Below, in pieces: positions 11,701-25,116 of a stretch of 45,321 nt of DNA. Below the pieces are notes generated by a model. That model saw only the letters and a program-made list of their open reading frames with translations, searched no databases and was not told the DNA's origin. Source of the stretch: Escherichia phage AV129; the sequence record OR352959.1. The stretch is one strand, 5' to 3'. Positions within the stretch are counted from its first letter, which is position 1. Each line of letters begins with the position of its first letter. The translations under genes and the position numbers were made by a program.

Positions 11701-12179
11701 CGTTTAACCATGCGGGCGGTAGTGCCACATACAGCCTTAAGGCTGGCGTGACGTATAACGGGACTTACTACGATGCCGGTATGCAGCTTTCGGTCGTGGC
11801 GGAAGGTGGCGCGGTTAAATCCCGCATCGCGTTCAAGGCGGACCAGTTCTACATCATGCACCCATCTAACGGGTCGCTTTCGTCCGCGTTTATCGTCGAC
11901 GGCGGGCAGGTGTACATCGACACAGCACGTATCAAGAACGCGTCCATCAACTTCGCGCAGATCACAGACACGCTTCAGTCCAATAACTGGAATCCGGGTA
12001 TCAGTGGCTGGCGTATCGCGAAGGATGGCGGGGCGGAGTTCAACAACGTAACGGTACGCGGCAACTTGTTTGCGACCACGGGTAACTTCGGATTCTCCGG
12101 CGGGTCGGTACAGATCGACGCAACCGGCATTAACGTGCCATTACCTGGCGGGGGTAGGGTGAAAGTGGGGACGTGGTGA
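8733..12179 (+). CDS. host specificity protein J-like central tail fiber
   Basis: 1148-aa ORF at the end of the tail tip gene order; N-terminus MTIIYDVTGHKGGGGKQHTPQE is gpJ-like. Confidence 0.85.
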   Translation: MTIIYDVTGHKGGGGKQHTPQETPDSLHSLAKIRILLALGEGEFEGITDPNELRQRVYLDGTPIQNADRSENFPGARVEFRPGTQHQDVIHGFSAVESEQSVGVKLENGTPWVRQINDTSLDAVRIRIGIPALYTNEDNGDLVGGRIDYKIVVYTDNADPREFRFAAVGKTMSLYERDHRIELPPNVNTGWRVEVHRITADSTSAKVVNDIRVQSITEIIDARLRYPLTALLFVEFDAKAFQNIPRVSIKCKGRKVLIPNNYDPINHTYSGDWDGTFKRAWTDNPAWHWYDICITERFGLGRRIKPQMLNRYALYQIAQRCDQFVSDGNGGREIRFKNDMYIQSQTDAWTVLKDLAAIFAGMTWWGNQMLNIVSDQPVAAVSHTITNASVIDGRFDYASGSQKTRYSTFAVAYGNPKNHYEDAIATGQRVELVRRHKINRLDITAIGCTRESEAQRRGHWALISNQLDQQVSFKVGMEGLFFIPGSVVAIADTNISGGFETRGGRLLPDPGTRTVLNTDSEITFRPGDKFLVRTDSGNVETREIASVNGNKVTLKTALDADPIPDQPFCVDGDDIQLQKFRITDLEYDDATSTFSVRGIEYNDSKYDAVDNGARLDPGIFTQVPDGVMKGPESVTITPSQISSQGQLITNVDIVFPPVKDAVVYEIQWRRTSLQNMAIQWGNDWVNIPRTASNGAHIPNVFSGNYQARVRAIGMGEISSPWVSSAITPVEGRLGGLNAPIITNAISGLHQILWKWNHNNAASDISYTELEVRKRGEMEWKFLTNVPYPGSDYAQTSLEFGIYQQLRARVADKIGNLSDWSAPFEGQVSDKVDEYMKGLDDEFLTSEDGKHFQEAIDTIPQGIYESMLTDAQQIFNARAEYKGIYAEITVAYNVATDAHKAVAQLETLIGTRLDDAEASIHTLQTAQSTHEQAFAQYQQTVAAKFGEQEAAIQQVQTATADVAGALAEYKTQVAAQFGQQSAAIEQKMTSSFNHAGGSATYSLKAGVTYNGTYYDAGMQLSVVAEGGAVKSRIAFKADQFYIMHPSNGSLSSAFIVDGGQVYIDTARIKNASINFAQITDTLQSNNWNPGISGWRIAKDGGAEFNNVTVRGNLFATTGNFGFSGGSVQIDATGINVPLPGGGRVKVGTW

Positions 12180-12186
12180 ATGCGAA

Positions 12187-12206
12187 GGGGCCATCCGGCC
12201 CCTTTT
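12187..12206 (+). terminator. rho-independent terminator at a convergent gene junction
   Basis: GGGGCC-atcc-GGCCCC hairpin followed by TTTT. Confidence 0.6.
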
Positions 12207-13179
12207 AATATATGTTAGGAATGACGAGTAACGGGGTTGGTACTGCAATATTTTTACCCGGCATTTGGAATTGTTGCCGTGAGTAGTTGCCAATGACGCG
12301 GTTTTTAGCTATGCGCACATTATTGCCCGCCATTCGTATACCGTTCATGCGTACGTGGTTATAGCCGCCGTTGTTCTCAATAAGCGCGCCGGTGTATGAA
12401 AGCTGGACCAGGCTGTTACCGATGTACTGATCGCCGCCGCCGATATTAATAAGGCGGTCATAAACAAACGGCTTATTCACAGTTGAGAACGTGACCTGAC
12501 CCTGGTTGTTTGTCATGGTGATGCCGTTCCCAGGGGTGGGCGGCGTATTGTTGAATATAACCAAGTCCATTTCAACAGCCGCGCCTACGTCGTCAATCCC
12601 ACCATAGGATGCATTACGGACGATAATACTTCCGCCATCGAAGCCGACAGACACGTTTCCGTCGTCCCAGCGCGCGAATGGGACACCGCCTACTGGTAAC
12701 GGCATACTTCCGTTCACCCACACGCGCTGCGCATATTGGCAGGTCATTAGCCTGGACACATTGGATATAGCGGTGAAGTCCGTCGAATTCGCCACCAGTA
12801 AGCCAGCGTTGCGCGATCCCACCGGCAGCACTTCCATAATCACCCCGCCCCATGATGGAAGCCCGCTATATGCGTTATACGCGTCCTCACCGCGCAAGGT
12901 GATTCCGCTATCCCCATTACGCTGTATTGACGTTATGTAAAACGGATCTGGCAAGACCAGTGTCTGGTCGAAGACTTCCATCACTTCAACGGGACTTGTT
13001 AGCACGACGACCAGATCTGACCCCGGCGTTAGCGGAGTGTTAATAGTTAGCGTCTTGTCAGACTGGCAGCGCTGATAGAATGATGTACAGAATGACGGCG
13101 CGCGTAGCCCAGCGGTTATCTCCATAACCGGTCGCCCGTCGTTGTAGTCGATAAGTATCCCAGCGCCCATTATTACCAC
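12205..13179 (-). CDS. putative tail-associated / receptor-binding beta-rich protein
   Basis: 324-aa Gly/Asn/Thr-rich ORF on the opposite strand between the J-like gene and the side fiber, translationally coupled to an upstream lipoprotein gene. Confidence 0.3.
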   Translation of the reverse strand: MVIMGAGILIDYNDGRPVMEITAGLRAPSFCTSFYQRCQSDKTLTINTPLTPGSDLVVVLTSPVEVMEVFDQTLVLPDPFYITSIQRNGDSGITLRGEDAYNAYSGLPSWGGVIMEVLPVGSRNAGLLVANSTDFTAISNVSRLMTCQYAQRVWVNGSMPLPVGGVPFARWDDGNVSVGFDGGSIIVRNASYGGIDDVGAAVEMDLVIFNNTPPTPGNGITMTNNQGQVTFSTVNKPFVYDRLINIGGGDQYIGNSLVQLSYTGALIENNGGYNHVRMNGIRMAGNNVRIAKNRVIGNYSRQQFQMPGKNIAVPTPLLVIPNIY

Positions 13180-13394
13180 TCCCGTGATTTAACTGATACC
13201 GTACCCGAGAAGTTGCCGTCGCTATCGGCAGACAGACCAGTGAAGCGCATATCCACATCTCCGGCTGGCACTTTCTTCCCGTCGACGTAGCGCAACATGC
13301 AGCTACCGTAGGCAACCGTAATGCAATCGCCGTTGTTGCGTTCTACAGCACAACCGGACAACAGAACCGCACAAATCATAATTAAAGTTTTCAT
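13173..13394 (-). CDS. small lipoprotein, putative superinfection-exclusion (Cor/Llp-like)
   Basis: ATG at 13394 with GGAGA RBS; signal peptide MKTLIMICAVLLSG followed by lipobox Cys; ~73 aa; sits next to the receptor-binding genes. Confidence 0.5.
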   Translation of the reverse strand: MKTLIMICAVLLSGCAVERNNGDCITVAYGSCMLRYVDGKKVPAGDVDMRFTGLSADSDGNFSGTVSVKSREW

Positions 13395-13474
13395 GGTATC
13401 ATCTCCTATATTTGGTTGAGTTTTAGTATTACACCGCTCGATCAAGAATGCAACCAATTTACGAGGATTTAGCT

Positions 13475-15298
13475 ATGGCAGCGGGTACTCTATCCGTAAC
13501 GAATAACAGCAAGGCGGTTGTCGGGGTAGGCACGACGTTTACCGCGTTTAACGCTGGCGACTTCTTAACGCTGGTGGTAGGGCAAGTCCCCTACACTGTT
13601 GCTATCGCGTCAGTCGAAAGCGACACCGCGCTTACGCTGGTGCTGCCGTTCGACGGCCCCACGGCAACCGATCTCGCGTGGGATGGCGTTAAGCGCGATA
13701 CCATGTCACTGGCGACGATGGGCGTAACCGTACAGGCACAGAAAGCATTGCGCTTGATGATTGCAGATGAAAACAACTGGCGTGCAATCTTCGGCGACGC
13801 TGAAGAAATAACTGTGACGTTGCCTAACGGGCTGGTAATGCAGGGTATGTCATGGGGATATCTGTCGCAGTTGATGAAACAGGTCGACCCAGTTGAGATG
13901 CGCAACCTGCAACAGCAAGCCGCCGCATCTGAAGCAGCCGCGCAGGGATACCGGAACGAGGCCGAAGGCTTCAAGACCGAGACGGCGGGCATTCGCGACG
14001 CCACCAATCAGATTAAGGCGGATACGCAGGCGATCCACGACGCCACTAATACCATCAAGACGCAGACTGACCAGATTAAGACTGATACTCAGGCCATCAA
14101 GGACCAGACGAACCAGATCAAGACTGACACCGGCGTTATTCGTGACGAAGCCAATATGGCGAAGGCGGACGCGCAAGCCGCCAGCACTGCCGCGGAGGGA
14201 TTTCGCGACCAGGCCGAGGAATGGGCGCAAAGCGTTAACGCGGATAACCTGCTAACCAAATCCGGCAACCTCGCGGGGCTTGCGGACAAAGGTGCGTCGT
14301 GGGCTAACCTCATGCCGTCCGGCCCGCTTCGAGTAGGCGCTGATCCCGTCGACAATCTGGACGCTGCGACTAGAGGATGGGTGTGGCGCGGTCTTGATGA
14401 CGTGGGGGTGTGGGCCTTACGCAATAACTATGCTTCGGAACCCGCTGGCGGCGCAGAAGTATACGGCGGTCGCTTCGACTCATCTGCGAACGTCGCAGGG
14501 GCCGAAAAATACAGAATGTCGCTGCAACTTCAGGGATTTAATAACGTAGACGCCTGGACACGTTTGGTTACCGCGAACGTCCGCAGCATGGAGAACGCGG
14601 CGACGTGGGACTTTAAGTACGATGGTAAGTTGCTTTTCAACAAAGGATTGGTCCCCACGTCCGCCACGGCGTCGCCGGGTAATACCTACGTCACCCTTGC
14701 GAATACCTGGTATAACGGCCAATACTCGGGCCACGTCGGCTTTGTTGGGGGCGGGGTGGGGACGAGTGGTGGCGGGTGGCGTAACTTTATTTCGTTCGGA
14801 GCGCTGATCCACACGGAGGCCGGTAACTCACACCCCCACGCTATGATTTCGCAGGTCTTTGACTATGATTTGGCGTCGGGGGTACAGCCCAACGGCGATA
14901 TCGTTCGAAACACAACATTCAACCCCGAAGCATATGATATTACCTTCGGCAACAACTCAGGGACTGTTAACTATATTTTCGCAAAGTCACCAGTATCCGA
15001 TAGGGCGCTGAAGCATGATATCGCCAGGATCGATACTCAAGTTGCGTACGATAACGTTATGGCGATGGAATACTCTTCCTTTGTTTATAACTACGACAAA
15101 AAGGAGACGGTCAGACGTGGTTTTATCGCGCAGCAGTTGGAAGAGATCGACCCGCAGTATGTTCGTAAGTACGCCGACGCAACGGGTAAAGAGTTTCTGG
15201 CATTAGATGAAAACGTCCTGTTACTTGACCTTGTCGCGACTGTTCAGCATTTGGCGGCGAAGGTTGAGGCGTTAGAAAGTAAGTTAGCGGAGAAATGA
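13475..15298 (+). CDS. side tail fiber with C-terminal intramolecular chaperone (peptidase S74-like)
   Basis: Nine heptad-like repeats (xIKxDTQ type) in the shaft; C-terminal SDRALKHDIARID...LESKLAEK resembles self-cleaving fiber chaperone domains; ATG at 13475 with gagga RBS. Confidence 0.7.
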   Translation: MAAGTLSVTNNSKAVVGVGTTFTAFNAGDFLTLVVGQVPYTVAIASVESDTALTLVLPFDGPTATDLAWDGVKRDTMSLATMGVTVQAQKALRLMIADENNWRAIFGDAEEITVTLPNGLVMQGMSWGYLSQLMKQVDPVEMRNLQQQAAASEAAAQGYRNEAEGFKTETAGIRDATNQIKADTQAIHDATNTIKTQTDQIKTDTQAIKDQTNQIKTDTGVIRDEANMAKADAQAASTAAEGFRDQAEEWAQSVNADNLLTKSGNLAGLADKGASWANLMPSGPLRVGADPVDNLDAATRGWVWRGLDDVGVWALRNNYASEPAGGAEVYGGRFDSSANVAGAEKYRMSLQLQGFNNVDAWTRLVTANVRSMENAATWDFKYDGKLLFNKGLVPTSATASPGNTYVTLANTWYNGQYSGHVGFVGGGVGTSGGGWRNFISFGALIHTEAGNSHPHAMISQVFDYDLASGVQPNGDIVRNTTFNPEAYDITFGNNSGTVNYIFAKSPVSDRALKHDIARIDTQVAYDNVMAMEYSSFVYNYDKKETVRRGFIAQQLEEIDPQYVRKYADATGKEFLALDENVLLLDLVATVQHLAAKVEALESKLAEK

Positions 15299-16616: not shown

Positions 16617-17074
16617 GTGAATTTTGCAACGTTTATTGCGTAAATTTTCGGGACCAAATCACCACACGCCCGACGAATTGCCGCGATGTTCTTCTCGCAA
16701 TCTTCAATGATGACCAGTTCAGACACGTCCGCGTAGACGACCATTTTGAACACGGCGCACGCCTTAAACTCTGGCGGCGGGGTGTCGTCTAGCATGTGGC
16801 GCATGAACAACCTGCCTGTCGGGAATACTTCCAGTTGCTCGGCGGTGGTCTCCCAACATTCTCGCTGCCGGTTTGTCAGATACGCTATCTCGAAGCCTTG
16901 CTCTTTGTACATGCGCAGCAGCGGCAGCATATCCATGTTCAGGTCTTCGCGGACGTGCGCTTTGTGCCACTTTGCCCAAAAGGTTGATTTCGTTTTTATA
17001 CCCGGCACCAGGTCAGCGCGTGCATCACTCGAACCATTAATAACGCCATCAAGATCACAAATCAGTAGTTTCAT
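16604..17074 (-). CDS. HAD-superfamily phosphatase (nucleotidase-like)
   Basis: N-terminal HAD motif I LLICDLDGVI. Confidence 0.55.
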   Translation of the reverse strand: MKLLICDLDGVINGSSDARADLVPGIKTKSTFWAKWHKAHVREDLNMDMLPLLRMYKEQGFEIAYLTNRQRECWETTAEQLEVFPTGRLFMRHMLDDTPPPEFKACAVFKMVVYADVSELVIIEDCEKNIAAIRRACGDLVPKIYAINVAKFTCNQ

Positions 17075-17295
17075 TTTAAGCTCTCAATAAGGGTGTATCG
17101 GACGCTGCGCGCGGAAAACTTGTTACACACAAGATGCCAACTGGCGGTTATGACAAGCCAGCCGGTAAGATCCAGGCCCCGGATATATTCTGGACGTGAC
17201 ACTCGCTTCACGCGATTGCGGCGCGGGTCGATGTTATAGTCTCTTTGCATTTGGTCTACTACCGCGGGGTCGCGGTCAACGATTAAGATATTCAA
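17071..17295 (-). CDS. hypothetical protein
   Basis: 74-aa ORF packed between the HAD and methyltransferase genes. Confidence 0.3.
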   Translation of the reverse strand: MNILIVDRDPAVVDQMQRDYNIDPRRNRVKRVSRPEYIRGLDLTGWLVITASWHLVCNKFSARSVRYTLIESLK

Positions 17296-18536: not shown

Positions 18537-18860
18537 TCACGCATAAAAATTCGGGTCGCGCGCGACGTCTACCAGGTAAAGGTTGCTTATGCGGTTGCCG
18601 TAGTGCCCTGGAGTGCGCTGGCGGCACACAACGGCGAAGCCGGGAGGGATTGTATTGCCCGTCTCAATAATCCACGCCACGCGTGCGCCAGACAGCGTCT
18701 TTCCGTTGCATTCGATACGTGTTCCGCCGTCGGCGGTATTGAGGTTGCCAATCTTGCAGCCGGTGGACTTCAGACGGATGACTCCGGTTTTGCTGTCGTA
18801 GGTGAATAGCTGGTTAGTCATTGCGACCGAAAAATCGATGGTTTCGTATGTAGCGTTCAT
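18537..18860 (-). CDS. hypothetical protein (weak HNH-like resemblance)
   Basis: 107-aa ORF; C-terminal GHYGNRISNLYLV is faintly HNH_3-like but the canonical His is not evident. Confidence 0.3.
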   Translation of the reverse strand: MNATYETIDFSVAMTNQLFTYDSKTGVIRLKSTGCKIGNLNTADGGTRIECNGKTLSGARVAWIIETGNTIPPGFAVVCRQRTPGHYGNRISNLYLVDVARDPNFYA

Positions 18861-19552
18861 TTTAAATTTTCCTCGTTAACCGCTATCGCGAAGCCGCGCG
18901 GAGTGAGTGAGCGGATTAATTTTGTACGAGCGGATTTACCACCGAGGCGACTATACTGTTTCGAGTATCCTTTTTCAACGAAAACAGGTTTCTTCTCTGG
19001 CATACGGAAGCCGTTGCCGGTCCATAAGCAAGTCAGCTTCGGATATGAATCGCGGGCGTTGATGTATTCCGGGAAGAGCGGGTGTACGTCATCCTCCGGC
19101 AGATACCCCCCATACTCCCACGGGTCGAACGAGTGATCCGGCTTGCGCCACTGGGTGGAAAGCACACTGCGCGGATTCTAAATCATATATGGCACTTCGA
19201 AGAAGTCACCCAGGTAAGCGGCGATCTTCGCGGTGCGCACCGCCTTAAGCTGAAAGGCTGGGTCTTTAGCCCGCTTGCGCGGGAAAGCTGGCGCGCCGCT
19301 CACTGCCAGATCCGTGCACGGAGGAAACGCATAGATGATATCGGGCGTACCGAAATCACCATTCATCGCGCGGTCAACGAAGTCCAGATCGATAAACTCA
19401 TTGCGATACCGGATTCCGCGACCATAAATCCGGTAGTCAAGGTAAGACCCGTGATCGGCTTCGGAGTAGTTGAAGCAATAACACTTATGCCCCATCTCGG
19501 CAGCACGCTCAATCATCAAACCGCTGCCGTCAAACAATGACCAGATTATCAT
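18857..19552 (-). pseudogene. ORF interrupted by one in-frame amber codon; possible methyltransferase-like protein
   Basis: ORFs 19178..19552 and 18857..19165 are in the same frame, separated by TAG at 19178-19180 plus 4 sense codons; N-terminal part has LFDGSG and FPPC motifs. Confidence 0.45.
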
Positions 19553-21063
19553 TTGCGCGCCTTTTTAGCTTTCATGTATTCCATCAAGTCGTCCTGTATA
19601 TCTCGCTTACTGTCTCGACGCTCAGCGACCAATTCGTCCAGTGTCCCGCGAGCCTGGATAATGTAGACGAATACCGGTCGTGGGTGTCCGGCCTGCATCT
19701 GGCGAACCGGCCCGATACGTTCAACGATCTGCGAAAAGTGCTCAAAGTTCCAGGTGTCTGAGAAGATTGCCAGGTGATGACCGCCGTCCTGCAAGTTAAG
19801 GCCGTGGCCCGCCGATGCCGGGTGTGCAAACATGATGGGGATCTCGCCCCTGTTCCATGCTTCCATATCCTTATTGCCCTGCTTTCCTTTACCCAACGCA
19901 ACGCCGTGCGGAAATTTCTTCTTAAGACGAGCCAGGTCATGTTTATACTGATACGCAACAAGCAACGGCGCCCCGTTCAGCTCCTCAACGATACTTTCCA
20001 GCGCGTCCAGCTTCGCGTCGTGAATCTTCACCCACTCGTCGGTCCGTTCGCCGTCTTCGTCCACCTTATACACCGCGCCGGAAGCAAGCTGAAGGCACTT
20101 AATTGTCTTCGATGCCGCGTTCGCCGCTTCCACTGTTCCGCTTTCCAGTTCGGCAAATAGCTCGCTTTCAAACTGGTCGTAAATCTTGCGGGCTTTCTTC
20201 GGCAGATCCACAACAACCGGCGTATATATTGGCTTGTCACATCCGAAGTATTCAGCCGCGTCAACGGTTAGTGATACGTCAGACAGGCGTTGTTGTATTT
20301 CTTTCTCGGAGTTCTTTAGCGGGGCGTGCTGCATCGTGAAGCTGCCAGGCTTAACAGGCTTGCTAATAAACCAGCGATCGGTAAATGCCTTATAGCTACT
20401 GCCGAGGCGTTCGCCACCGTCGACAAACCACGTCTGACCCCATAAGTCTTTTAGCCCGTTTGGCGCTGGTGTGCCGGTAAGGTTAATCCAGCGCTTGACG
20501 TGTTTATGTGCAATCGCTGCCAGTGCGCGGGCGCGCTTGCTCCCCTGCTTGCTACGATAGCCTTTCAGCTTAGTCGATTCATCGGCAACAACGACCGTAA
20601 AGGGCCACGCATCGCCGTAATAGTCAACCAACCACTCAACAACATCATAGTTAACACAAACCACGTTAGCGTCGCTCTCAAGCGCGGCAATACGGTCCTT
20701 CTCAGGTCCAGTGCCGTCTACGACCAGCAGGGATGAGAATCGCCATTTCTCCTGCTCCGGTGGCCAGGTGCCGGACGCAACGCGCAGCGGGGCCAGCACC
20801 AGTACGCGGTCCTCATGATGGGACAGGACGCCAGTCTGGAACATTTTATTCAGCGCCCACATTGTCGCGCCGGTTTTACCGGATCCCATTGTCGCCCATA
20901 TATTACATCGCTTATGCTTGAGGATGAACGCGGTTATCAACTTCTGATATTCGCGGCGTCGGAATCTTGCCATGTCTTTATTCCGCCTTTTTCCAGACTT
21001 CTGTCTCACTGTTCCAGTTCCTTTTTGTGGCGTCGTAGTTGGTGGCGTGTCCGATGTGGACAC
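19549..21063 (-). CDS. SF2 helicase (DEXD/H-type)
   Basis: Walker A ATMGSGKTGAT and DExx box VVADESTKL; true start may be the internal Met at about 20973. Confidence 0.7.
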   Translation of the reverse strand: MSTSDTPPTTTPQKGTGTVRQKSGKRRNKDMARFRRREYQKLITAFILKHKRCNIWATMGSGKTGATMWALNKMFQTGVLSHHEDRVLVLAPLRVASGTWPPEQEKWRFSSLLVVDGTGPEKDRIAALESDANVVCVNYDVVEWLVDYYGDAWPFTVVVADESTKLKGYRSKQGSKRARALAAIAHKHVKRWINLTGTPAPNGLKDLWGQTWFVDGGERLGSSYKAFTDRWFISKPVKPGSFTMQHAPLKNSEKEIQQRLSDVSLTVDAAEYFGCDKPIYTPVVVDLPKKARKIYDQFESELFAELESGTVEAANAASKTIKCLQLASGAVYKVDEDGERTDEWVKIHDAKLDALESIVEELNGAPLLVAYQYKHDLARLKKKFPHGVALGKGKQGNKDMEAWNRGEIPIMFAHPASAGHGLNLQDGGHHLAIFSDTWNFEHFSQIVERIGPVRQMQAGHPRPVFVYIIQARGTLDELVAERRDSKRDIQDDLMEYMKAKKARK

Positions 21064-21735: not shown

Positions 21736-21968
21736 TTGGTCTGCAACTCCACGTTACGCAGACGAAGGTCTACCGGTATATCCGACCGGCCGGTTAGTGC
21801 CAGCGCCAGGTTTTCAGGCGTGACGAGTGCCGTAATGGTCTTGCCACGTTCCAGTCTAATGACGATTCTAATCTCGTCATTGTCCGTCGCGCCAGCGCGC
21901 ATAATGCTCATTTCTGCTTTCATAATCTTACTTCCTGTACCTGTACATAATGTCGCCTTCGGCGGCAA
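21732..21968 (-). CDS. hypothetical protein
   Basis: Small ORF immediately downstream of the polymerase gene; start uncertain. Confidence 0.3.
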   Translation of the reverse strand: MPPKATLCTGTGSKIMKAEMSIMRAGATDNDEIRIVIRLERGKTITALVTPENLALALTGRSDIPVDLRLRNVELQTK

Positions 21969-24900
21969 GTGGGAAGCCTTTCGCCCAAATAGGCAGGTCG
22001 CACATCAGCGCGCAAAGCTCCTCGGTCGTGTAGTCGTCGGTGTCCGGCACTTCTGTGATCAATTCGTCGTGTACTGACAGGACGATTTCATACCCCGCAG
22101 CTTCAACGCCAGGCATGGACCATGCGAGAATATCGCGACACAACGCCTGTACGATGTTCTCCGTCAGTTTGCCGCCGTAGGTATACTGGAATCCCCACTG
22201 GCGCGTCGTCTGATTCTCGCCCTGATATTTAATGCGTGTGCTGGTGCGCTTCTTGCCGGTGTCTTCGTCAATCTCGGTAGTGACAGACAGCGCGATGCCG
22301 GGGTAGCTCATGATGCGCCCCGACGGCAACTCAATTTTCAACCACCACCCAGCGGCGTTCGGGTCGTCGCGCTCCTCGTCAAAGGTTGGGTCGTGCTTCG
22401 CCTTCGTACGGACAATCTTGAGCGCTTTTCTACCGTCCGGGCGAACGTTCGCGCCAGCCCAGTATGCTTTACCAGGATTGCGGATTGCACACAACACCGC
22501 GTCCTCAAGCTCTGCCCAAAAGGCTACCGTCTTCGGGTGAGCCTCACGCCACATACGTTTGATCGCGTCACAGGTAAGCCATACGTTTTTCGGCAGTAAG
22601 TAGGTTGGGCGCTCGTCCTTCTTGCCGGGCTTCGGCGGGCGCTTCGCTTCGTTAATGCGAGCGTACTCATAACCACGTTTCGCCGCCGCCCAAATGTGAT
22701 CCGGGAACGTGCCTTTCATGACGTCAGCCATAGTGTAAAGGTCGAGGCCCAGGTTTTTAGCGAACTGCAAGAACGCCGCGACGCCGCCACCGTAGCCCAG
22801 ACCAAGCTCGCAGTTATGCGCCACCAGAAAACCAGACTTAGACGCAATAAGGAACCGGTTTCCGTCTTCCACATCAATCAGGTCGTAAACCGGCTCGCAA
22901 TAGGTTAACTTCCCGTTCCAGTTCAGCAATGCGGGTAAGGGCTTCATCGTACTTTCGCTGAAGCTCGGGCACGCTGCGCCGGTTACGGCAGTTTTCCGAA
23001 CGGCTGACAAACCGAAGGTTTCCAGGCTCATAGTTGCCGTCTGTATCGATCCGGTCCATTTCGAAGTCTGGCTTATCCCAGCCGTCCAGCGTTTGAACGT
23101 AGAGAAGAAACGACCTTTTATCTCTCTTCCATTCGTCACATACGGCAATCCCACGACCGCCGTAGTTTTTATACCCTTTAGCGCGGGGGTTTGCCGTTCG
23201 TGATATTGCCGCTGACAGCCGGTTGAGCAGCCGCGTTCTGTGCGCATCGTCTGGCATTGCGTCATCGTAGCAAAAATACTGTTTACGATACCGCTTTGTC
23301 GCTTCAATTGCGCAGAGGTTGCATTGGGATGTTTTACCCCTTCGGACGTTGTCATACCCGACGCGTCCTGGCATCGCTCCGCAATCACATTGGGCCAGCA
23401 GTTGTCTGTGCCCCTGTCGTTTTGGTAATTCGCGCAGGATAACCAGGCGTCCATACCTCTCGCCAGGGCGCGGACCATCGTGCACCTGTCTGAAACGAGT
23501 TGCCTTGCCTCCTTCCATGAATGCGTCAAGATTTTGTGGTCTTCTGTCATCAAGACCCCGTCCACGTCTATCACTGGTTTCCACCCCATAAGGTGCGCGC
23601 CTTTTGTACTCACCCATTTTTCGCCGTTCCATACTTTATCCGTTGATGTTACGGCCATAATATCCTTGAACCCGCCATTGGTCAATACTTGGGTATGGCG
23701 GTGCAAGCAAGCCTTCCCTATCTGGCGTAAATCCTTGCGGTTGGCTTTGATGTAATCCGGGTCAAGGCCAAACATCTTACCGGCAGTTTCACAATAGATA
23801 TCGCGACCGGCCTTAAACACCATTAGCGCGGTTTTCTCGCCTGCGGTCCAGGCAAGTCCACGCCCTTCCACGTTGGAGTAGTCCGCTACGACAAACTTCT
23901 TGCCCTTAGCCGGGATAATGCACCCGCGAACGGTCGAGGCTGTTAGCTTAGATATGTCATACGCCCAGTGCGCGGTCCCGCGTAACAGGGAATTGATGCC
24001 GTTGGTGAGCATGTGCGACCGGACCCAAAAAGCAACGTCGCTCTCGCCTTCGCGGCGCTTAATCTTCCCTTCGTGATCGTCGCTATACTCGCCGCGTGCC
24101 AGGTTTTGAGGCTGGAAGCCTTTACCCGCCCAGCGCAGCGTGCGCTTTGCGCCACCATACTGAAGACACCCACGGCGGCGACCATCTGCGGATAAGCCGT
24201 TAACTAACGGATTGTACTTAGTCGATGCCGTTGATGACGCACCGAGGCGCATTTCGATAAGCGCTTTGCCTTCGTCGGGGAAGTCCGGGTCTTCAAGCAG
24301 GTCGTTAAGTGTGGATTTCTGCGCGTTGTGGATTGTGAACGCAGGCGCGAGGTCGCGCAGCGCTGGCAGGAAGTCATTGCCGGTCAGCTTACCGCCGAAG
24401 CGCTCCCATGCTTCTTCCTTCAATTCTTCCTTATGCGCCTGCACCGCTTTGATCGCGGCGTTCGCCAGGTCAACGTCCACATAGAAGCCGCGGTCATTGA
24501 TCAACTGGTCAATAAGCAGGATTTCGTCTTCCTTCGGCGTGTTACCCCAGTCCGGTATGCGCCAGTAGACTTCCCTCATCGCTATAATATCCAGTGCGGC
24601 ATAGCGCAGGAATTTAGCCCATTCCTCGGGGTGCGTCTCGCGCGTATAGCGACGGATTTTGTAGGTCTTAGGGGTGGGCTTACAGAATCGTTTGATCAGC
24701 GCCTTGCCAGCCTTATCCTTCGCGTGCTCTGCGTCGACGCCCAACACCTGGCACTGCATATCGAGGCTACCCGGCAGCGCGTGTCGAAAGGCCATAATCA
24801 TGGTGTCTTCGATCTGGACTACCGGCAGGTCAATGCCCCACTTCTCGCGAATAACCAGGCGGTCAAACAGGAGGCCGTTAGCCATCACGATTTTTGCTTT

Positions 24901-25116
24901 CTTGCGGGATACCCGGCGGAGCGCCTTGCGCAGTTCACGCGGCATTGTGGGGGACTCGGTGCAATCCCATGTCTGCACGCGGCCCTCGTCGATGGCGTAT
25001 GTGCAAATCATAATCTCGGTAGTTGGGTGTTCCGCGTAGGCGTACGCCCCAACTTTCTTCAGGTCCACCCCGCTAAATGTCTCGGTGTCGAGAAACAGGC
25101 GTTCGAAGTCTTTCAT
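21928..25116 (-). CDS. DNA polymerase, family A with 3'-5' exonuclease domain, intein-containing
   Basis: Exo motif FLDTETFSG, motif A ADYSNVEGR, motif B split as RQIGKA / CELGLGYGGG around a ~299-codon insertion; C-terminal VHDE motif C. Confidence 0.85.
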   Translation of the reverse strand: MKDFERLFLDTETFSGVDLKKVGAYAYAEHPTTEIMICTYAIDEGRVQTWDCTESPTMPRELRKALRRVSRKKAKIVMANGLLFDRLVIREKWGIDLPVVQIEDTMIMAFRHALPGSLDMQCQVLGVDAEHAKDKAGKALIKRFCKPTPKTYKIRRYTRETHPEEWAKFLRYAALDIIAMREVYWRIPDWGNTPKEDEILLIDQLINDRGFYVDVDLANAAIKAVQAHKEELKEEAWERFGGKLTGNDFLPALRDLAPAFTIHNAQKSTLNDLLEDPDFPDEGKALIEMRLGASSTASTKYNPLVNGLSADGRRRGCLQYGGAKRTLRWAGKGFQPQNLARGEYSDDHEGKIKRREGESDVAFWVRSHMLTNGINSLLRGTAHWAYDISKLTASTVRGCIIPAKGKKFVVADYSNVEGRGLAWTAGEKTALMVFKAGRDIYCETAGKMFGLDPDYIKANRKDLRQIGKACLHRHTQVLTNGGFKDIMAVTSTDKVWNGEKWVSTKGAHLMGWKPVIDVDGVLMTEDHKILTHSWKEARQLVSDRCTMVRALARGMDAWLSCANYQNDRGTDNCWPNVIAERCQDASGMTTSEGVKHPNATSAQLKRQSGIVNSIFATMTQCQTMRTERGCSTGCQRQYHERQTPALKGIKTTAVVGLPYVTNGREIKGRFFSTFKRWTAGISQTSKWTGSIQTATMSLETFGLSAVRKTAVTGAACPSFSESTMKPLPALLNWNGKLTYCEPVYDLIDVEDGNRFLIASKSGFLVAHNCELGLGYGGGVAAFLQFAKNLGLDLYTMADVMKGTFPDHIWAAAKRGYEYARINEAKRPPKPGKKDERPTYLLPKNVWLTCDAIKRMWREAHPKTVAFWAELEDAVLCAIRNPGKAYWAGANVRPDGRKALKIVRTKAKHDPTFDEERDDPNAAGWWLKIELPSGRIMSYPGIALSVTTEIDEDTGKKRTSTRIKYQGENQTTRQWGFQYTYGGKLTENIVQALCRDILAWSMPGVEAAGYEIVLSVHDELITEVPDTDDYTTEELCALMCDLPIWAKGFPLAAEGDIMYRYRK
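22813..23709 (-). other. intein inserted in polymerase motif B
   Basis: Insertion starts with Cys (CLHRHTQVL), has block B-like VLMTEDHKILT, ends YDLIDVEDGNRFLIASKSGFLVAHN followed by +1 Cys. Confidence 0.7.
22874..23632 (-). CDS. HNH homing endonuclease, nested in the intein in a different reading frame
   Basis: Zinc-finger-like QCDCGA...SQCNLC, then YKNYGGRGIAVCDEW and DRIDTDGNYEPGNLRFVSRSEN; frame differs from the polymerase frame; likely start near 23518 (MEGGKATRF). Confidence 0.75.
   Translation of the reverse strand: MERRKMGEYKRRAPYGVETSDRRGRGLDDRRPQNLDAFMEGGKATRFRQVHDGPRPGERYGRLVILRELPKRQGHRQLLAQCDCGAMPGRVGYDNVRRGKTSQCNLCAIEATKRYRKQYFCYDDAMPDDAHRTRLLNRLSAAISRTANPRAKGYKNYGGRGIAVCDEWKRDKRSFLLYVQTLDGWDKPDFEMDRIDTDGNYEPGNLRFVSRSENCRNRRSVPELQRKYDEALTRIAELEREVNLLRAGLRPD

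Follow-up and report, generated by a model that had tools for sequence, protein, structure and literature searches.

The split gene and its locus

Escherichia phage AV129 is a Dhillonvirus with a genome of 45,321 bp and 54.5% G+C (OR352959; Vitt et al., PMC10844046), and the whole of that sequence is the window analyzed here. The subject of the analysis is a segment of its minus strand, positions 18857..19552, where two open reading frames (ORFs) lie one behind the other and together make up a gene for a dcm-like C5-cytosine DNA methyltransferase (231 codons plus stop), read here as a pseudogene in AV129. The first ORF starts at the ATG at 19552-19550, runs for 124 codons (19181..19552), and ends at the amber codon TAG at 19180-19178. 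Four sense codons (AAT CCG CGC AGT, encoding N-P-R-S) separate this stop from the GTG at 19165-19163, which opens a second ORF of 102 codons (18857..19165) ending at the TGA at 18859-18857. The product of the second ORF is identical to a record protein labeled “hypothetical protein” in GenBank (WPK38546.1). The frame is the same throughout, and translation of 19552..18857 yields 231 codons with one internal stop. This geometry, and a read-through protein of about 231 residues, had been described in an earlier note made from the letters alone; both agree with the sequence and the ORF list, and the two motifs named there fall at residues 6 to 11 (LFDGSG) and 76 to 79 (FPPC).

Split-ORF geometry by itself is weak evidence. 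The window contains 17 single stops flanked on each side by an open stretch of 90 codons or more, versus approximately 2.3 in shuffled sequences, and most of them correspond to adjacent genes or antisense frames. It is the comparison with homologs that makes the case real. Every relative whose copy is undisrupted carries both halves contiguously within one coding sequence (CDS), and wherever the codon corresponding to the amber has been retained, it reads GAG. A single CDS of 231 or 236 amino acids (aa) was found in phages slur05, JLBYU60, Oekolampad, SO-1, and Pubbukkers, as well as in 30 loci from IMG/VR and 11 of 12 metagenome loci. In the five named phages, this CDS carries the annotation Dcm-like C5-cytosine methyltransferase and is flanked by genes for a helicase and an HNH protein. 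Over all of its 696 nucleotides (nt), the AV129 segment aligns collinearly with the intact copies in slur05, JLBYU60, Oekolampad, and SO-1.

The alignment with relatives places the amber codon (19178..19180) at codon 125, where a single G>T change at 19180 of the minus strand (C>A on the plus strand) converts GAG to TAG. Across the 121 nt around the stop, this codon is the sole difference from slur05, JLBYU60, and Oekolampad, and SO-1 also has GAG. An 81-mer centered on the stop had no exact match among phage records, and 24 records matched it at 80/81 positions. The amber-containing 34-mer was absent from IMG/VR in an exact-pattern scan, the 124-aa N-terminal fragment had no record by exact look-up, and in more than 50 relatives codon 125 is never a stop.

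The dcm region of AV129 is 97% identical to those of the Dhillonviruses slur05, JLBYU60, and Oekolampad and of Sodalis phage SO-1; the first 25 kb of the window reaches at most 93% identity to any record of the phage collection. No near-clonal sibling genome of AV129 was found, and the closest DNA is a locus (L049) with 98.25% identity over 2.9 kb. At the protein level, the Dhillonvirus Dcm proteins (Oekolampad [Bas18] gp36, slur05 gp02, SO-1 gp32, and Pubbukkers gp37) are 98 to 100% identical to that of AV129 once codon 125 is read as Glu. They are encoded in the same locus order, helicase, dcm, and HNH, with Dam further on. AV129 differs from them by the TAG and by the “hypothetical protein” label on the C-terminal piece.

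On the minus strand, dcm is preceded by a gene for an SNF2-type DNA helicase (19549..20973), recognized by a PF00176 match on an identical protein, and followed by an HNH or homing-endonuclease-like gene (18537..18860). The latter is named from the HNH annotation in relatives; its product had no Pfam hit. The TGA of the helicase gene overlaps the ATG of dcm (ATGA), which suggests translational coupling into dcm. The TGA of dcm likewise overlaps the ATG of the HNH-like gene (ATGA), and a GAGG lies approximately 10 nt upstream of that ATG; any coupling from dcm into the HNH-like gene is removed by the premature stop. The helicase ORF called mechanically starts at a GTG at 21063 (19549-21063, minus strand, 504 aa). 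Since all helicase homologs start at the ATG at 20973 (474 aa), translation of the additional 30 codons is improbable.

Family and predicted fold of the encoded protein

The AV129 protein with Glu restored at position 125, here called the repaired protein, matches PHROG 757 (“DNA methyltransferase”) with an E value of 2e-82. It also aligns over its full length, at 54% identity (E = 1e-86), with the Dcm-like protein encoded by a 711-bp gene of phage KarlJaspers (Bas06). KarlJaspers and its relative K42 belong to the Drexlerviridae, a different phage family from that of AV129, and their Dcm is a full-length homolog with matching catalytic residues. Motif I (LFDGSG) and motif IV (FPPC, with the catalytic Cys79) are both present in the AV129 protein. 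Alignments of diverse relatives leave C79, E125-N126-P127, K172, and the TCLWTGNGFRMP block invariant, and the 102-aa downstream ORF carries the conserved TCLWTGNGFRMP and TPRGFA segments.

The predicted fold is consistent with this assignment. The AlphaFold2 model of a 99%-identical relative (P0001) has a predicted local distance difference test score of 91.5 and a predicted template modeling score of 0.90. When it was compared with the PDB by Foldseek, the top 50 matches were all catalytic domains of DNMT3A, 3B, 3C, or DNMT1 (best E = 1.5e-7, template modeling scores of 0.45 to 0.55). An hhalign comparison of the family profile with M.HhaI pairs FDGSG and FPPC with DLFAGLGG and GFPC(81); it covers only motifs I to IV, with E = 0.033, and does not reach ENV. 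Homologs, fold, and profile alignment thus identify the two motifs, which the earlier note had found faintly methyltransferase-like, as motifs I and IV of a C5-cytosine methyltransferase. The family shares its predicted fold, motif I, and the PC motif with DNMT3A, DNMT3B, DNMT1, and M.HhaI but differs from them in its length of only 231 aa, in having ENP for ENV, and in having no recognizable canonical QxRxR motif VIII. Searches of PDB sequences with phmmer and with a profile returned only weak spurious matches (ToxD kinase and KtrA) and were discarded.

The amber codon replaces the motif VI glutamate

The stop sits on the glutamate of motif VI, which is of the ENV type and here reads ENP. This residue (Glu119 of M.HhaI and E756 of DNMT3A) is needed for catalysis. 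The spacing from Cys79 to Glu125 is 46 residues, the same as that from C710 to E756 in DNMT3A. Glutamate occupies position 125 in 35 of 35 relatives checked, down to 32% identity, and in 40 of 40 loci scored as full-length and intact; where the relatives have the invariant E-N-P, the AV129 codon is TAG. Residues C82, E128, and K175 of the KarlJaspers protein align with C79, E125, and K172 of AV129. In the Dcm of K42, a strain 95% identical to KarlJaspers, the same three residues have been named as catalytic or substrate binding and were mutated to obtain an inactive control (bioRxiv 10.1101/2023.08.16.553469).

Translation of the AV129 gene would end after 124 residues. The fragment would retain motif I, for S-adenosylmethionine, and motif IV with the catalytic cysteine, and it would lack both the motif VI glutamate, which contacts and activates the flipped cytosine, and the entire C-terminal half. 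Because the truncation falls before motif VI, AV129 would be expected to make no active Dcm. Reinitiation at the GTG at 19165 would yield a fragment still without Glu-Asn-Pro, and basal read-through would be tiny. The AV129 gene belongs to the C5-methyltransferase family by descent, and we infer that its product would not be an active member.

The lesion appears to be young. The products of seven metagenomic loci are 100% identical to the repaired protein. Between AV129 and its relatives there are up to 58 synonymous differences and only 1 to 3 nonsynonymous ones, and no nonsynonymous change downstream of the stop is private to AV129. The ratio of nonsynonymous to synonymous substitution rates (dN/dS) is 0.016 to 0.03 on both sides of the stop. 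Strong purifying selection has therefore acted until essentially the present, and the mutation is very recent. Of the three options raised in the earlier note, a recent nonsense mutation is the one that fits a single GAG>TAG change in a gene whose repaired product equals natural proteins and which has not decayed beyond the stop.

The present comparison shows which gene this is, that it carries a point mutation, that the mutation lies on a conserved residue of the active site, and that it arose recently. Together, these results make it very probable that the two ORFs are one dcm-like gene, knocked out by one very recent amber mutation on the motif VI glutamate, and that AV129 carries a genuine loss-of-function allele.

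Some points weigh against this reading. Neither the repaired protein nor either half matched Pfam PF00145 at E ≤ 1, and NCBIfam likewise gave no match for the repaired protein or either half. PF00145 matches 3 of 11 relatives, with a best E value of 0.025, and a few database relatives carry a precomputed PF00145 match; sequence libraries of the Pfam and NCBIfam type are nearly blind to this small methyltransferase family. The family assignment draws on motifs, on the fold prediction, and on a preprint about a homolog with 54% identity, and the loss of Dcm activity is a prediction from the sequence. Finally, the call was made from a consensus sequence, for which an error or a mixed stock is possible.

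Other disruptions of dcm in Dhillonviruses

The AV129 amber is not the only lesion in this gene. About ten different disruptions of dcm were found in other Dhillonviruses (loci L005, L039/L044, L040, L054-L056, L057/L058, L059, and L006; proteins P0004, P0011, P0113, and P0134), a count of different lesions and not of independent events, since some may be artifacts and some may share ancestry. Intact copies in the genus have a dN/dS of approximately 0.02.

Most of the lesions are deletions. JohannBuxtorf/Bas84 (L005) has a 56-nt frameshifting deletion, and a scaffold from ENA has a 10-nt deletion. One allele carries a 108-nt in-frame deletion that removes residues 91 to 126, another has lost 71 aa in frame, and in a further one a double deletion has taken out the PPC motif. 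A deletion of approximately 510 nt between imperfect repeats is found in vB_EcoD_Opt212, vB_EcoD_Teewinot, and Shigella phage 1b (L054-L056), and one further contig has a different junction. The remaining disruptions comprise a second amber allele, S141 TCG>TAG, present in two sequencing runs; a +1 frameshift in a run of G residues, read at a low coverage of 8x (L059); and, from an 88.6-kb record that is possibly misassembled, a pair of 77-nt tandem duplications.

An imperfect 13-nt direct repeat, CGGCA(G/A)CGGCTT, is present in the AV129 window at 19516-19528 and 19006-19018 on the minus strand, where its two copies specify DGSG in motif I and GNG in TGNGF; in L054-L056 it lies at about position 730. 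Because this repeat marks the junction of the approximately 510-nt deletion in the three GenBank phages, it is probably a microhomology deletion hotspot.

Neutral or adaptive persistence of the allele

The default explanation for the persistence of the amber allele is neutral or hitchhiking fixation during enrichment and plaque purification. Most Escherichia coli strains are dcm+, and the phage enzyme may therefore simply be redundant there. On a wild dcm+ E. coli host, Dcm may be dispensable, and a knockout would drift or hitchhike. AV129 was obtained from pig waste by enrichment on ESBL49, a wild, livestock-derived E. coli isolate that produces extended-spectrum β-lactamase (ESBL), and the paper reporting it does not mention methyltransferases (PMC10844046).

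A possible but doubtful alternative is that the amber was selected, either because a host defense senses Dcm or because the methyltransferase is costly, so that AV129 would be a natural escaper. The defense in question could be, for example, the retron Ec86 (Eco1), whose multicopy single-stranded DNA (msDNA) is methylated at CCTGG by phage Dcm. The Dcm of K42, the homolog 54% identical to the repaired AV129 protein, methylates CCWGG in Ec86 msDNA and thereby triggers the retron, with 5-methylcytosine (5mC) detected by liquid chromatography-mass spectrometry (bioRxiv 10.1101/2023.08.16.553469). All four Ec86 escaper phages in that study had lost dcm function, a premature stop being among the lesions; 34 of 35 Ec86-sensitive phages encode Dcm, members of the “Siphoviridae” included; and overexpression of Dcm was toxic (bioRxiv 10.1101/2023.08.16.553469). 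The AV129 lesion resembles those of the escapers in that it is predicted to abolish the function of a trigger-Dcm homolog; it lies at the residue equivalent to E128 of K42. The K42 escapers, however, arose under laboratory selection imposed by an Ec86 plasmid, whereas AV129 is an environmental isolate with no known exposure to Ec86.

The pattern in the genus can be read in two ways. Some ten disruptions have accumulated although intact copies are under strong constraint, as would be expected if loss were recurrently favored, but the same picture could arise, with no positive selection, from a deletion hotspot together with conditional dispensability. The distribution of the retron is also unfavorable to adaptive escape. 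The Ec86 noncoding RNA (ncRNA), at ≥99% identity, was found in 48 of 5,426 complete E. coli genomes (0.9%), mostly B-lineage laboratory strains. All copies are chromosomal, the examples listed are mostly of the B, BL21, and REL606 type, and the overlapping gene is annotated as a “retron St85 family effector protein.” The query for this survey matches BL21 and REL606 at 100%. The rarity of the Ec86 ncRNA weakens the adaptive part of the interpretation. The CCWGG target is known from the 54%-identical Dcm of K42, and its extension to AV129 is by analogy.

We therefore put forward only tentatively, and as less likely than neutral fixation, that the AV129 amber is one case of recurrent adaptive loss of Dcm in wild Dhillonviruses, in which the enzyme would be kept in the long term and discarded repeatedly where it is toxic or where host defenses, for example of the retron Eco1 type, sense phage cytosine methylation. 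If this is true, a natural trade-off would show itself in numerous short-lived knockouts at the tips of the phylogenetic tree, and the long-term role of the enzyme would presumably be antirestriction.

Restriction of the McrBC type was set aside as a selective agent; C-5mC-WGG lacks the R-5mC context that McrBC needs. CCWGG occurs 145 times in the whole window, compared to 70.6 ± 8.7 expected from dinucleotide shuffles, and is thus approximately twofold enriched and not avoided. The enrichment may reflect a host-like oligonucleotide bias or long-term protection by methylation.

Alternatives to a loss-of-function allele

A sequencing or assembly artifact, with a false T in the consensus where the actual phage carries GAG, is unlikely. 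A one-base difference in an otherwise wild-type allele is what such an error would produce, and G>T is a known read artifact of oxidative damage. Some of the other broken alleles are prone to artifacts as well, such as the G-run frameshift at 8x coverage (L059) and the allele L2P5 from the 88.6-kb record. Against this, the amber site is nonrepetitive and not in a homopolymer, and the independent S141 amber allele, seen in two separate runs, indicates that nonsense alleles of dcm do occur. The AV129 genome is, moreover, a de novo consensus of Illumina MiSeq 2x250 reads from purified phage (PMC10844046), and substitution errors rarely reach such a consensus.

Growth on an amber-suppressing host, with full-length protein being made and the gene functionally intact, was the second option in the earlier note and is very unlikely. 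Amber is the classic suppressible stop, and TAG is the rarest natural terminator here, used by 3 of 46 genes. The host was, however, a wild ESBL E. coli strain from livestock and not a sup laboratory strain, and the AV129 genome has no tRNA genes. When approximately 58 Pubbukkers genes were mapped onto the window, a mid-gene stop in a well-conserved gene was seen only in dcm; in a spanin-like gene the TAG is the terminator, placed six codons early, and a TGA falls in a stretch of low conservation. Genome-wide amber recoding or a phage-encoded suppressor tRNA was rejected on the same grounds, namely, the lack of a tRNA gene and of any other conserved gene with a mid-gene amber. The common amber suppressors supE, supD, and supF insert Gln, Ser, and Tyr, respectively, and would place one of these at a strictly conserved glutamate that is never substituted in the relatives checked. 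AV129 has in common with classical phage amber mutants a single in-frame UAG, but it concerns a nonessential gene of a wild isolate grown on a wild host, and the suppressors would not restore the glutamate.

Still less likely is a two-subunit enzyme assembled from the N-terminal fragment and a C-terminal fragment reinitiated at the GTG at 19165. C5 methyltransferases tolerate splitting, natural heterodimers exist (PMC3404938), and an in-frame GTG does lie four codons past the stop. In M.AquI, M.EcoHK31I, and the engineered split forms of M.SssI and M.HhaI, however, the two polypeptides are divided after motif VIII and retain all motifs (PMC3404938), whereas the AV129 break lies within motif VI and removes it, so that both fragments would be without Glu-Asn-Pro. 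There is no Shine-Dalgarno-like sequence upstream of the GTG at 19165, and no relative has a split at this position; the halves are contiguous in every undisrupted copy.

Programmed or regulated read-through setting a low level of methyltransferase, the third option in the earlier note, has the in-frame geometry in its favor and nothing beyond and is the least likely of all, given that the stop is conserved in none of more than 50 relatives, that its flanks are identical to those of GAG-bearing relatives, that the 96 nt downstream fold no better than shuffled sequences (z = −0.44), and that Glu is seldom inserted by read-through.

The knockout of a single dcm-like gene by one amber codon hence remains the preferred reading. 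In its core, one gene, one amber, and a methyltransferase, the earlier note had arrived at the same result; it had missed that the codon is that of the motif VI glutamate, that breakage of the gene recurs within the genus, and that the gene belongs to a retron-trigger family.

Other features of the window

A family A DNA polymerase is encoded at 21931-25116 on the minus strand. At 1,062 aa, it has the length of the Pubbukkers protein annotated as “intein-containing,” and several relatives have 763 aa; the difference of approximately 300 aa may correspond to an intein or insertion. Pfam recognized only a short PolA stretch in the 1,062-aa polymerase.

A 74-aa ORF at 17074-17295 (minus strand) lies between the Dam methyltransferase gene and a phosphatase-like gene. 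Its position is that of Ksap1, the trigger of KpAvs2 (PMC11564622). The ORF is only 61% identical to its Pubbukkers homolog and is therefore taken to be a variable immune-target gene.

At approximately 12030-13475, Pubbukkers gp25 and gp26 have no counterpart, gp27 matches over 16 residues only, and the C terminus of the long tail fiber differs. The receptor-binding locus thus appears to have been exchanged relative to Pubbukkers.

Implications

As a class, the AV129 allele is ordinary: a known phage gene has recently been knocked out by a nonsense mutation, as one case within a pattern of recurrent loss. The finding is in itself a pseudogene call, and reannotation of the two AV129 ORFs as a single disrupted dcm gene is warranted. 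AV129 comes from a collection proposed for the biocontrol of ESBL E. coli. By analogy with the 54%-identical homolog, a phage that lacks cytosine methylation of its own may differ from its relatives in its sensitivity to CCWGG-cutting restriction and in its resistance to methylation-sensing defenses. Because the lesion falls exactly on the catalytic glutamate, AV129 would offer a clean, naturally occurring null allele to set beside its nearly isogenic relatives. With recurrent breakage of dcm on the one hand and purifying selection on intact copies on the other, the balance between an antirestriction benefit and an immune-trigger cost becomes testable on natural genomes of these phages.

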